Shown piece by piece: positions 6,372 through 20,758 of a stretch of 24,834 nt of DNA. The stretch's first letter is position 1. Every line of letters starts with the position of its first letter. Under the pieces are notes generated by a model. It worked only from the letters and a program-made list of their open reading frames with translations. It was not told the origin of the DNA and made no database searches. This DNA is from a virus (lineage: Duplodnaviria; Heunggongvirae; Uroviricota; Caudoviricetes). Location: IMG/VR virus record IMGVR_UViG_2563366939_000004, positions 1 to 24,834 of that record. One strand, written 5' to 3'. Made by a program: the position numbers and the translations under genes.

Positions 6372-6446
<75 letters not shown>

Positions 6447-6449
6447 ATA

Positions 6450-6525
<76 letters not shown>

Positions 6526-7421: not shown

Positions 7422-7708
7422 AAATATCCCTCCTTTCTCCAGATTTCTTGTGTGCGAAAAACACCTTCTGCATGCATCAGGCGTAATTCTTCTTTGGTGT
7501 AATCGCTGGTTTTTACCCGCCCGTCGATTAGATCGTGGCATGAGCTACAGGCAATCGCCGCCTGCATATCGTGTGGTTTTGTCGCTGTTCCGCACGTTCC
7601 CGCCAGTCGGTAATGCGCCAGCACAGACGTTTCCGGATCGTGATTGCAGTAGCCAGGAATTCTGACGGTGCACATCTGCCCCCGCGCCGCTTTACGTAAA
7701 TCCACCAT
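7418..7708 (-). CDS. YbcO-like small Cys-rich phage protein (DUF1364-type, putative nuclease)
   Basis: 96 aa, MVDLRKAARGQMCTVRIPGYCNHDPETSVLAH...CGTATKPHD...ACSSCHD resembles K-12 DLP12 YbcO from memory. Confidence 0.65.
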   Translation of the reverse strand: MVDLRKAARGQMCTVRIPGYCNHDPETSVLAHYRLAGTCGTATKPHDMQAAIACSSCHDLIDGRVKTSDYTKEELRLMHAEGVFRTQEIWRKEGYL

Positions 7709-8307
7709 TACGCAAACTCCAGCAGCTGCGCGGCCACATTTTCGACTTGTTCCGGAGAGGAAAATTTACGGAACAGAATCCAGTTCCACAGCACATTCAG
7801 AACAGATTTATAAACCTGCTGAAACTCGGTTTCGTCCATATTCGCAAAAGCGATGGATTTCGCCCGACGCCCATGGCTACCGTCCGGATAAAAATGTTCG
7901 GTGTAAAATCCAGCCTGAATGGTTACCCACTCGCGAAAAGCCTCAAACGACTTTAGCAATGCCGTATCCCGGGTTCTGCGTGTCGCAACTGTATTCAGAT
8001 ATTGCTCTGCGGCATCACTCAGGGCTGGCGTGTGTTCCCGACCAACTGATTCGCACAGGTAATCAACGAAACCAGACAGCAGTTCTCGTTCGCGAGGCGT
8101 GATCGCCCCACCGACCGGAGTCCAGTAATCGAATCCCAGTTGCAGGAGTTTGAAAAAACGCTTGTGGAATACGTAGTTACGCACACGCTTAAAGTCTGCG
8201 TGTATCCACTCACCTATTTTGATTTGATGCAGAAAATCGCAACTCTCCGGCGTCGCCGGGAGAAGTAAACCAGAAGAGGTTTGTTTGACCAGTTGTATAT
8301 GCGCCAT
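7708..8307 (-). CDS. Conserved lambdoid nin-region protein of unknown function (199 aa)
   Basis: ORF with 1-nt stop/start overlap (TAATG) with ybcO-like gene. Confidence 0.55.
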   Translation of the reverse strand: MAHIQLVKQTSSGLLLPATPESCDFLHQIKIGEWIHADFKRVRNYVFHKRFFKLLQLGFDYWTPVGGAITPRERELLSGFVDYLCESVGREHTPALSDAAEQYLNTVATRRTRDTALLKSFEAFREWVTIQAGFYTEHFYPDGSHGRRAKSIAFANMDETEFQQVYKSVLNVLWNWILFRKFSSPEQVENVAAQLLEFA

Positions 8308-8580
8308 TTCTCAATCTCTCGATGGCGCAGTGCAACAGATGCCAGTTGTTCAGGCTGACGTATAAAGTATAAATAAACTGGTTCCAGTGTAAAGCCCCCA
8401 CATTGATGGAATAAAAACCAAACAACAGATTGCTGGGATAAAAACAACGCTTATTATTAAAAGCGGTTAAACAAATTAAATTTTAATGTTATGCAAATCT
8501 GCCAGATCACCATAATATCTCATTTGAAAACCGCTGAAATAACAACCCTATCAGGATTAATCATATTAAGGTGAGTAAAT

Positions 8581-8667
8581 ATGGAAAACAACAAATCTGC
8601 ACATTACGTTCCTTTTTTATCTGTAATACTTTTTGTTTTATGCTGTGCGTGGGCATTATTTTTATAA
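8581..8667 (+). CDS. Putative 28-aa hydrophobic small protein (MENNKSAHYVPFLSVILFVLCCAWALFL)
   Basis: Strong SD (AAGGTGAG) 5 nt upstream of ATG; single predicted TM helix; below ORF-track size cutoff; convergent with hok. Confidence 0.35.
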   Translation: MENNKSAHYVPFLSVILFVLCCAWALFL

Positions 8668-8773
8668 AAATATTCACAGATAAAATATACCCGCCAAAGC
8701 AGGTTAAGTGCGGGTGCGTTGAGGATGCCTGACACATCAGAGGTGGCGAGGGATTTATCCCCCGCCAGGTCTC

Positions 8774-8929
8774 TTACTCCTCAGGTTCGTAAGCTGTGAA
8801 GACAGCGACCTCCGTCTGGCCGGTTCGGATTCGTACCTCACAGAGGTCTTTCCTCGTTACCAGTGCCGTCACTATGACGGTTAAACAGATGACGATCAGG
8901 GCGATTAACATCGCCTTTTGCTGCTTCAT
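8774..8929 (-). CDS. Hok-family type I toxin (51 aa)
   Basis: Hand translation gives MKQQKAMLIALIVICLTVIVTALVTRKDLCEVRIRTGQTEVAVFTAYEPEE, a Hok/Gef family sequence; missed by ORF track because under 60 aa. Confidence 0.85.
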   Translation of the reverse strand: MKQQKAMLIALIVICLTVIVTALVTRKDLCEVRIRTGQTEVAVFTAYEPEE

Positions 8930-9451
8930 AGCCTGCTTCTCCTTGACCTTTCGGTCCGTAAGAGGCTAATCTCTATGTGTCGCATAGATATGGCCTCAGA
9001 TTAATGTTAAACGTCTTGCAGGACGCGTAATGTTAACTGGGGCTTTTCTCTATCTACCTTTGGTGTTCATGCCCGAGGCAGATAGCCTCAAGCACCCACA
9101 GCAATTCTAACTATCCAATACATCACTGCCAACACTTTAAACTCTTACCCTTTAAAACAAGAACAAAATTCAACCAATCAGCATTGGGCGTATACTCATA
9201 TCCTAGAGAAAACAACTCTTTCTGTACTATTTATATCCATATGATTTATAAGCATTTGCCACTTGCCATAGCCGCACAATGACAGTTTGCCATTTGATGT
9301 CAATAGATAAAAATGATCGTTTTCAATGAGTTACATACTTGCAAGGCGTTGCACATCAGGCCCGATTACGTCAGTATCAAAAGATTACAGATGGTGCATT
9401 ACTGCCACCTCGCCTTAATGTTCCAGAACTCTCCAACTTGAGGAATTTTCA

Positions 9452-10225
9452 ATGACATCCTTTCAATTATCTTTGATTTCTCGTGAAATTGACGGCGAAA
9501 TAATACATTTACGTGCCAAAGATGGTTACATAAACGCCACATCAATGTGTAGAACTGCGGGCAAACTGCTCTCTGATTACACTAGACTCAAAACTACTCA
9601 AGAGTTTTTTGACGAATTATCACGCGATATGGGAATTCCCATATCGGAGTTAATTCAATCATTTAAAGGTGGAAGACCTGAAAACCAAGGGACATGGGTG
9701 CATCCTGACATCGCTATTAATCTAGCGCAGTGGCTATCGCCCAAATTTGCAGTCCAGGTTTCAAGATGGGTTCGTGAATGGATGTCAGGGGAAAGAACTA
9801 CAGCAGAAATGCCTGTACATTTAAAACGGTACATGGTTAATCGTAGTAGAATTCCTCACACGCACTTTTCTATTCTTAATGAACTGACATTCAACTTGGT
9901 TGCACCTCTTGAACAAGCAGGGTACACACTCCCAGAAAAAATGGTTCCTGACATTTCACAAGGAAGAGTATTTTCACAATGGTTAAGAGATAATAGAAAC
10001 ATAGAACCCAAAACATTCCCTACCTATGACCATGAATATCCCGATGGTCGCGTATACCCTGCAAGGCTGTACCCAAATGAATATTTAGCAGATTTCAAAG
10101 AACATTTTAACAATATTTGGTTGCCGCAATATGCCCCGAAATACTTCGCTGACCGGGACAAAAAGGCTCTCGCCTTGATTGAAAAAATTATGCTACCTAA
10201 CCTCGATGGCAATGAACAGTTCTAA
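9452..10225 (+). CDS. KilA-N domain protein with uncharacterised C-terminal domain (257 aa)
   Basis: N-terminal KilA-N/APSES-like region (IDGEIIHLRAKDGYINATSMCRTAGK...WVHPDIAINLAQWLSPKFAVQVSRWV); GAGGA RBS; opposite strand to neighbours; AT-rich flanks. Confidence 0.65.
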   Translation: MTSFQLSLISREIDGEIIHLRAKDGYINATSMCRTAGKLLSDYTRLKTTQEFFDELSRDMGIPISELIQSFKGGRPENQGTWVHPDIAINLAQWLSPKFAVQVSRWVREWMSGERTTAEMPVHLKRYMVNRSRIPHTHFSILNELTFNLVAPLEQAGYTLPEKMVPDISQGRVFSQWLRDNRNIEPKTFPTYDHEYPDGRVYPARLYPNEYLADFKEHFNNIWLPQYAPKYFADRDKKALALIEKIMLPNLDGNEQF

Positions 10226-20382: not shown

Positions 20383-20577
20383 ATGAGATATGACAATGTT
20401 AAACCATGTCCATTTTGTGGTTGTCCATCAGTAACGGTGAAAGCCATTTCAGGATATTACCGAGCGAAGTGTAACGGATGCGAATCCCGAACCGGTTATG
20501 GTGGAAGTGAAAAAGAAGCACTCGAAAGATGGAATAAACGAACCACTGGAAATAATAATGGAGGTGTTCATGTATAA
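20383..20577 (+). CDS. ralR: RalR (Lar), restriction-alleviation protein / type I TA toxin
   Basis: 64 aa MRYDNVKPCPFCGCPSVTVKAISGYYRAKCNGCESRTGYGG... Confidence 0.85.
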   Translation: MRYDNVKPCPFCGCPSVTVKAISGYYRAKCNGCESRTGYGGSEKEALERWNKRTTGNNNGGVHV

Positions 20578-20758
20578 AATTACCGCCACTATTGAAAAGG
20601 AAGGTGGCACTCCTACTAACTGGACAAGATATTCAAAATCTAAACTAACGAAATCAGAATGCGAAAAAATGCTCTCAGGTAAAAAAGAAGCAGCCGTTTC
20701 CAGAGAGCAGAAAGTAAAACTGATAAATTTTAATTGCGAGAGACTTCAGTCCTCGTGA
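20570..20758 (+). CDS. rcbA: YdaC/RcbA small protein (62 aa from ATG 20570)
   Basis: GGAGGTG RBS; start overlaps ralR stop; synteny between ralR and xisR. Confidence 0.6.
   Translation: MYKITATIEKEGGTPTNWTRYSKSKLTKSECEKMLSGKKEAAVSREQKVKLINFNCERLQSS

Follow-up and report, generated by a model that had tools for sequence, protein, structure and literature searches.

Does a 28-codon open reading frame (ORF) that faces a hok toxin gene across an AT-rich gap in a prophage constitute a gene and, if so, what might its product do? This question is raised by positions 8581-8667 (plus strand) of a 24,834-nucleotide stretch of viral DNA, the whole of which is referred to here as the window. The window is a lambdoid prophage, and the label 'Rac-like' that it had been given is a reasonable one, as RalA sRNA is found at 20576-20754 on the minus strand (full-length Rfam match, 220 bits); RalA is the sRNA antitoxin of the RalR/RalA pair of Rac, and represents a second type I locus in the window. 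Transcription of the early and nin regions of the phage follows the minus strand, from the replication genes through hok, DUF1367 (7708-8307), DUF1364 and a DUF1133 Q-like gene to tRNA-Thr and tRNA-Gly and then the lysis genes. The small ORF is located on the opposite strand, between hok and DUF1367, where GC content is 27-33% (8400-8700) compared with 45-57% in those two genes. The lysis cassette is separated from the Q-like gene by the genes for tRNA-Gly(TCC) and tRNA-Thr(TGT) (6372-6525, minus strand); among the relatives, E. coli W and the loci L004 and L007 share these genes and L001 does not.

The small ORF and its predicted product

The ORF extends from an ATG at 8581-8583 to a TAA at 8665-8667, and its product would be MENNKSAHYVPFLSVILFVLCCAWALFL, in which a polar N-terminal octapeptide is followed by a 20-residue hydrophobic segment that reaches the C-terminus. 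Residues 9-28 are hydrophobic without a break, and the highest Kyte-Doolittle mean over 19 residues is 2.62. A Shine-Dalgarno (SD) sequence, AAGGTGA, is found at 8568-8574, leaving a 6-nt gap to the ATG; the AGGTGA within it is a perfect 6-nt complement to the 3' end of 16S rRNA. As an in-frame TGA is present at 8572-8574, the ORF has no longer N-terminus. The initial annotation had described an ORF with a good SD and a peptide with a single transmembrane segment. Both descriptions hold: the 28-codon ATG frame is preceded at 6 nt by AAGGTGA, and one predicted hydrophobic helix (residues 9-28) dominates the peptide. At fewer than 60 aa and hydrophobic throughout this helix, the peptide has the size and hydrophobicity of type I toxins, and it is probably targeted to the membrane.

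T accounts for 38 of the 87 bases of the ORF, and T-rich DNA readily gives hydrophobic ORFs. We therefore need to ask how often such an ORF arises by chance. Using as criteria an ATG ORF of 20-50 aa, a 5-mer SD at -5 to -16 and a hydrophobic stretch scoring at least 2.2, we found one ORF in the window compared with 0.03 expected per Markov-simulated window, and a comparable ORF in 0.1% of simulated local AT-rich pieces; these figures are only indicative, because the thresholds were set post hoc with the ORF already known. Conservation appears to provide stronger evidence for the ORF than does this test.

Three other frames of the region were considered and rejected. A 53-aa GTG frame (8571-8732) and a 58-aa minus-strand frame (8561-8737) both cross a mosaic junction and have stops in other haplotypes. 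An upstream 27-aa ORF (8491-8574) is without an SD and, on reading the aligned sequences by eye, is not conserved as a protein.

Selection on the reading frame and distribution of the ORF

Conservation of the frame in relatives had been set beforehand as the test of whether the ORF is real, and the ORF passed it. The frame is intact in 160 loci selected by pattern, which include 14 peptide variants, and also at every one of the 209 homologous loci (140 of 140 and 69 of 69) picked by upstream non-coding sequence alone, with a single E2G copy among the latter. The block at 8450-8493, described below, served as the search pattern independent of the ORF.

A total of 228 loci represent 22 nucleotide haplotypes and approximately 17 peptide variants, and the minimum spanning tree of these haplotypes contains at least 57 substitutions, 26 of them synonymous and 31 nonsynonymous. 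The synonymous share expected at random is 24-27%, so that the observed 26/57 is in excess (P = 0.0017 and P = 0.0003). Approximately 10% of random substitutions would break the start, the frame or the stop, and none of the 57 did so (P ~ 0.002). In a six-frame test the other frames gave null results, save for the mirror frame -1, which itself has stops in 18 of the 22 haplotypes; all 22 are open in the small-ORF frame only. In this frame pN/pS, taken pairwise between the main lineages, ranged from 0.12 to 0.49, and omega is approximately 0.4, nonsynonymous changes being more numerous than synonymous ones in absolute count. A frame that is kept, together with a synonymous excess across diverged copies, is what characterizes a protein-coding gene. 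The pattern indicates purifying selection of moderate strength on the frame, the independent evidence amounting to three or four lineages because many of the loci are near-identical.

Within the alignment, 64% of the columns of the ORF are invariant and none has a gap, compared with 24% invariant columns and nine gap columns in the leader upstream. The invariant residues are M1, E2 (save for the one E2G copy), N3, N4, H8, P11, L13, S14, I16, F18, C21, W24, F27 and L28, and variation is free at positions 5-6, 9-10, 19-20 and 23. Over the final five codons and the stop there is almost no nucleotide change, which could reflect a recombination junction rather than constraint on the protein.

This invariance of the DNA at the 3' end of the ORF, and its coincidence with a mosaic junction, are also in keeping with a different reading, in which the locus is a non-coding element (a divergent nin promoter or operator, a structured RNA or a mosaic 'boundary sequence') and the frame is a by-product of its T-richness. 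A non-coding element predicts neither an excess of third-position, synonymous change found only in the open frame and its mirror, nor 87 nt without an indel while the adjacent leader has many, nor the lack of start, stop or nonsense changes among the substitutions counted above. It also leaves unexplained the correctly spaced SD of most lineages, and the cassette occurs away from any nin operon in one case (L086). We consider this reading distinctly unlikely, even with the support from upstream elements to which we return below. The small ORF is very probably a genuine gene that had not been annotated before.

Of 5426 complete E. coli genomes, 1188 have DNA similar to 8440-8700, with identities of 73-100%. 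The cassette containing the ORF is also present in Shigella flexneri and E. ruysiae, and the copies that could be read in IMG/VR prophage contigs, in S. flexneri and E. ruysiae and in gut and food metagenomes all have the ATG, 28 codons and the stop. An identical peptide would be encoded in E. coli W (ATCC 9637) at NC_017664.1 complement(1512879..1512965), and some carrier strains of E. coli have up to three copies of the ORF; in the K-12 prophages Qin and DLP12, no copy of the cassette was found. A tblastn search of phage and plasmid collections returned four E. coli phage records and two chromosome-sized records (4.8-4.9 Mb) filed as plasmids, and no copy outside Escherichia. When genome contigs were scanned with a T-rich 20-base pattern, the true matches were S. 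flexneri and E. ruysiae only, most of the others being chance matches in unrelated phyla. The family thus appears to be confined to Escherichia and Shigella. If the ORF is translated, approximately one in five sequenced E. coli carries an unrecorded gene for a membrane peptide, including the laboratory and industrial strain W.

The expectation that an ORF of this size would be missed by annotation proved correct, as it is annotated in none of the records examined; among the 60 matches listed for the 1188 E. coli genomes, none has annotation under the cassette match. An exact look-up of five peptide variants in a collection of 15 billion proteins returned nothing, which is expected because 87 nt falls below the limits of gene callers. 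A tandem of two peptide variants, searched against 5.8 billion protein clusters, matched four rare, aberrant alleles of the same locus (P0001-P0004) and nothing else, and we therefore recognize no longer parent protein. In P0001 a stop-loss has given a 58-aa product in which the upstream 27-codon frame is fused to the peptide; P0002 and P0003 have frameshifts after codons 23 and 20 respectively, and P0004 is rearranged after codon 17. These alleles are either real mutations or homopolymer sequencing errors.

Neither Pfam nor PADLOC yielded a family for the peptide at E values up to 10, Hok/Gef, Ldr, Ibs, TisB, Fst and DinQ included, and there was no significant family in NCBIfam or PHROGs. The near-matches in these two, at E = 0.04-0.27, are signal peptides of the lipoprotein type and a PHROG without a known function; the resemblances to Lp6.6 (E = 0.04-0.2) and to an Rz-like spanin PHROG (E = 0.24) are weak and not significant. 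No mention of the peptide was found in the literature searched. A preprint on small proteins of CFT073 describes new membrane peptides, and the two for which coordinates are given (108 and 192 nt) are other ORFs; the accessible supplementary material to Fozo et al. 2010 and to the Pro-SMP finder paper gave no match.

A lipoprotein was among the candidates rejected. The pattern expected of such a protein is an n-region with positive charge, an h-region and then the lipobox [LVI][ASTVI][GAS]C. Cys21 does not vary, but the residue before it (position -1) is L or F in the majority of variants, giving VLC and VFC, which break the lipobox and led us to reject this reading; only the rare AGC and VSC variants fit. 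Moreover, the n-region MENNKSAH has a net charge of 0, and the mature part would consist of eight hydrophobic residues.

The same faint resemblance to lipoprotein signal peptides, with the lipobox-like AGC and VSC variants and the narrow taxonomic range, might be taken to indicate a relic: either the signal peptide or N-terminal anchor of a longer gene that was truncated before the lineages split, or a young and functionless de novo ORF. We regard this as highly improbable. The 5.8 billion clusters hold no longer homologue, the lipobox is broken at -1 in most variants, the n-region is without net positive charge and only eight residues would remain in the mature part; purifying selection on the frame further argues against a dead relic.

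Cassette limits and variable neighbours

The minimal unit shared by divergent copies spans approximately 8446-8668 and comprises the ORF and some 135 nt upstream of it, approximately 225 bp in all, with 30% GC. The most diverged copies (73-74% identity) align only as far as 8668, one base past the stop codon. Beyond these limits the neighbours vary. To the right, 154 loci fall into six classes: two types of hok (91 and 10 loci), a DUF1971 gene (36), IetAS (15) and two singletons. Of the five classes to the left, DUF1367 is the largest (107 loci); a rem-like gene accompanied by DUF968 and RusA accounts for 39 loci and, in variant form, for one more, and the remaining two classes are singletons, of which one (L086) adjoins a 992-aa tail-fibre-like gene away from any nin operon. 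Left and right classes combine in many ways. In Qin of K-12, rem and hokD are found without the cassette between them, and the hok module there starts at window position 8689.

The DUF1367 gene, the commonest left neighbour, is the first gene of the nin/Q-proximal operon on the minus strand. Approximately 60 nt upstream of its start is the best sigma-70-like site of the region, TTTACA-16-TATACT at 8393->8366 (minus strand), which is also kept where the left neighbour is the rem-like gene (L005, L014). Its retention suggests that the nin/Q-proximal operon may be served by a dedicated promoter pointing away from the small ORF.

On the right, the window has a hokD-type toxin gene (8774-8929, minus strand), annotated as HokD in a RefSeq genome that is 97.9% identical to the window over 8400-9100. 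The sok/hok leader is at 8927-9097 (Rfam sok, 101.5 bits), a promoter-like site of the module is at 9132->9104 (minus strand), and the 3' hairpin and terminator of the hok mRNA occupy 8689-8715 (minus strand), the terminator-like stem at 8704->8689 being followed by ATATTTTATC. This hairpin begins 21 nt past the stop of the small ORF, outside the small-ORF cassette, and marks the start of a separate hok/sok module: homology to hokD of Qin and to phage hok loci likewise starts at approximately 8689. A query of 8400-9100, which includes hok, matched 4747 genomes, mostly through its hok part, compared with 1188 for the ORF region.

The initial annotation had drawn attention to the convergence of the ORF with hok. 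In this window the two genes are indeed convergent, their stop codons are 107 bp apart and their transcripts could overlap; such overlap is not, however, a conserved property. The emphasis on hok was not sustained, since 53 of the 154 loci have another right neighbour and hok is often found without the ORF. As the neighbours vary and the cassette stops directly past the stop codon, convergence with hok is incidental. It is common, at 101 of 154 loci (about two thirds), and not obligatory. When hok loci are read alone, the neighbouring conserved element is missed.

These observations bear directly on the proposal that read-through on the plus strand produces an antisense RNA to the 3' end of the hok mRNA, the region of fold-back inhibition, and so tunes hok, the peptide being secondary. 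The proximity of the ORF stop to the hok terminator hairpin (21 nt) would permit this, and on the plus strand that hairpin precedes GCGTTGAGG, with no U-tract and hence no plus-strand terminator; the frequency of hok as right neighbour is in its favour also. The proposal is nonetheless very improbable, as hok is not the neighbour at one third of the loci, where the junction follows the stop codon directly, most hok loci are without the cassette, and the reading frame is under selection that an antisense-only role does not need.

The right-hand DNA contains defence cargo. PADLOC identified IetS (E = 1e-298), NsnABC and a BstA-like KilA-N protein in it. In phage vB_EcoS-683R6, IetS (E = 1e-298) adjoins a gene annotated as an FtsH-like cell division protein, and in E. 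coli W, NsnC, NsnB and NsnA (E = 1e-89 to 1e-123) are found just past hok. These other defence systems of relatives occupy the same hotspot to the right of the small ORF, at L007 (2642-4858, minus strand, and onward) and L002 (5163-8366, minus strand). In the window itself a KilA-N protein gene beside hok (9452-10225, plus strand) has a PADLOC match (E = 3e-21) to BstA, an abortive-infection protein, over the C-terminal part of the latter, and together with hok/sok it forms a block of defence and toxin cargo. The DUF1971 gene, which had no PADLOC match, is approximately 500 nt downstream of the small ORF at 3228-3569 in L003, 3234-3572 in L004 and 3066-3431 in L006 (plus strand); as it is on the same strand as the ORF, co-transcription is conceivable in this second commonest context. 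In most prophages the small ORF therefore sits at the fixed edge of a cargo hotspot.

Genes of the kind known as morons provide the closest parallel for this arrangement. Examples in lambdoid phages are bor and lom of lambda, gp15 of HK97 and cor of phi80, the concept having come from the comparative genomics of HK97 and HK022; morons often encode envelope proteins, and the spot beside the tail-fibre gene is a classic moron site. Like morons, the small ORF is patchily present, in some related phages only, between conserved genes, and its base composition is unlike that of its flanks; it is oriented for expression from the prophage, and one copy is beside a tail-fibre gene. Unlike morons, it is much smaller, its promoter and terminator are only candidates, and its cassette ends at the stop codon. 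We would regard it as a new family within a known kind of element, and the 225-bp cassette offers a compact test case, a small protein of the moron type that is unannotated and for which the evolutionary evidence is clear.

Upstream elements and possible roles

The most conserved non-coding block in the alignments, CTTATTATTAAAAGCGGTTAAACAAATTAAATTTTAATGTTATG at 8450-8493 (plus strand), forms the left limit of the minimal cassette and is presumed to be a control region, either promoter- or UP-like or a binding site. At 8485-8519 (plus strand) there is an imperfect hairpin or inverted repeat with the 9-nt arms AATGTTATG and CATAATATC, which are always 17 nt apart; across copies the second arm reads CATAAYATY. 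The inner stems are clade-specific yet complementary (ATCTG/CAGAT, AAAAAG/CTTTTT and AAAG/CTTT). In all, 86% of cells are paired, compared with 30-52% when the partners are slid; in two pairs both partners have changed, and the plus strand is the one that the G-U pairs suit. An outer and larger inverted repeat (8462-8536), which appeared in the fold of the hypothetical antisense RNA described below, is specific to the clade of the window and was rejected.

A strict sigma-70 scan upstream of the small ORF found no plus-strand promoter. The only promoter-like pair on that strand that is conserved in position is weak, with ATGCAA (8491-8496) separated by 16 nt from TAATAT (8513-8518); the -10 hexamer ends at -60 to -67 in clade representatives, approximately 62 nt before the ATG. 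As the hairpin arms coincide with this pair, a promoter and a leader hairpin are indistinguishable here, with an operator as a third possibility. The SD AAGGTG is present at 100 of the 140 upstream-selected loci and in 50 of 62 distinct cassette sequences; the weakened forms AAAGTG and AAAGCG belong to the L159 clade, which is a common one, and AAGGTA is found in L041 and L086. No terminator was found inside the cassette, and whatever hairpin lies downstream is borrowed.

That the best-conserved stretch (8450-8493) is non-coding, and that the hairpin has a fixed 17-nt spacing and some covariation, are the main points in favour of the non-coding reading considered above, as are minus-strand promoter-like sites that point at DUF1367. 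Even were the ORF not translated, lambdoid prophages would have in this hairpin and upstream block a regulatory or recombination element not described before.

On the minus strand a sigma-70-like sequence, TTTCCA-16-TATGAT, is found at 8560-8587 with 9 of 12 matches, overlapping the start codon. Its -10-like hexamer is in place in nearly all variants (TATGAT, CATAAT or AATAAT, with one AACAAT in the L003 clade). This is the only candidate promoter for an antisense RNA, and the evidence for it is weak, because the Met-Glu codons fix its -35 hexamer and the surroundings are rich in A and T. The only terminator-like hairpin available to such an RNA (8465->8448) has five weak pairs and is not found in L086. 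The hypothetical 116-nt antisense RNA folds better than its shuffles (z = -2.66). The modelled mRNA (8525-8712), with its 5' end assumed, folds no better than shuffles (z = -0.11); on this assumed start site its SD is in a loop and is not sequestered, and the blocked translation of type I systems is not seen. An Rfam scan of 8200-8700, which includes the cassette, found no RNA family.

Taken together, these features allow us to weigh the possibility that the ORF encodes a type I toxin, that is, a membrane-damaging peptide held down by a cis-antisense RNA that would start from the 8587->8560 site and proceed leftwards across the leader and the hairpin. Peptides of the ShoB/Ibs type have 19-30 aa, a polar head and a hydrophobic helix to the C-terminus, and ShoB ends in LFL. 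The small-ORF peptide has this size and shape, its polar head being followed by a hydrophobic C-terminus that also ends in LFL, and the locus sits among toxin and defence cargo. The recurrence of the minus-strand -10-like hexamer in the same place in nearly all clades and the z-score of the hypothetical antisense RNA would suit a toxin, and the weakening of the SD in one clade could mark a cost of expression. Against this, no toxin family in Pfam, NCBIfam or PADLOC was matched at E values up to 10, nor was any Rfam RNA between 8200 and 8700; the Met-Glu codons fix the antisense -35 in any case, and the sole terminator-like hairpin is the weak one that L086 lacks. The ordinary mRNA fold with its exposed SD is unlike known type I toxin mRNAs, the G-U pairs of the hairpin suit the plus and not the antisense strand, and there are no tandem copies. 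What the peptide clearly shares with type I systems is its size and hydrophobicity, and we consider a type I role unlikely.

Among the type I loci of E. coli, ShoB/OhsC and Ibs/Sib have been reviewed (PMC2887945, PMC8309996); like them, the small-ORF locus is free-standing, in an AT-rich intergenic region, with a possible divergent or overlapping antisense promoter. Unlike ShoB and Ibs, its peptide has no sequence similarity to theirs, an antitoxin RNA is neither demonstrated nor convincingly predicted, the leader is short and unstructured with an exposed SD, and the locus, which is without tandem duplication, is at a prophage rather than a core site. It shares with the adjacent, convergent Hok/Sok system that it is a prophage-borne gene for a putative small membrane peptide. 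Hok/Sok differs in being a separate mosaic module from 8689, with a 51-aa Hok, the mok/sok/fbi architecture and an Rfam sok match; the small ORF is without mok, sok or fbi features, and is without hok in a third of loci.

Our preferred reading, which we hold to be probable, is that the small ORF is a real gene, under selection and unannotated, that resides on a self-contained moron-like cassette and encodes a membrane peptide with one helix. The cassette (approximately 8446-8668) comprises, in order, the presumed control block, the hairpin or promoter-like element, a variable leader of approximately 55 nt, the SD and the ORF. As the ORF opposes phage early and nin transcription, we propose that it would be transcribed in the lysogen from its own promoter. 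The translated peptide would insert in the inner membrane as a single-pass protein of the tail-anchored type, with its head, MENNKSAH, probably in the cytoplasm. The cassette recombines as a unit between prophage backgrounds, like a lambdoid-phage moron, beside a hotspot that holds hok/sok or anti-phage systems (IetAS, NsnABC beyond hok, or the BstA-like protein). Since only its own upstream region always accompanies it, the peptide should act alone in the host membrane. Because the SD is strong and mRNA structure does not hide it, a lethal toxin seems to us less likely than a peptide of mild activity in the membrane that would modulate an envelope function or the entry of phages. If translated, the ORF could reveal a new membrane-acting factor in the interaction between phage and host.

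A more far-reaching reading, which we consider improbable, is that the ORF is the founding member of a new family of prophage membrane peptides that both marks and serves the defence-cargo hotspot of Escherichia lambdoid prophages. In one version the peptide would be a new type I toxin under the control of the leader hairpin and an antisense RNA; in another it would be a superinfection-exclusion or abortive-infection peptide, with a read-through transcript that tunes the adjacent hok.

In form, the peptide that we predict resembles either the short tail-anchored type I toxins or the small regulators among membrane proteins. The latter include AcrZ, MgrB, MgtS, PmrR and YohP, which are short, have one helix and are missed by gene callers. 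These single-pass regulators of E. coli have been reviewed (PMC12648545). Unlike them, the small ORF shows no sequence similarity to any of the five, has no known partner and is an accessory prophage gene rather than a core gene; like them, it is free-standing and SD-led, of similar length, and with one predicted helix.
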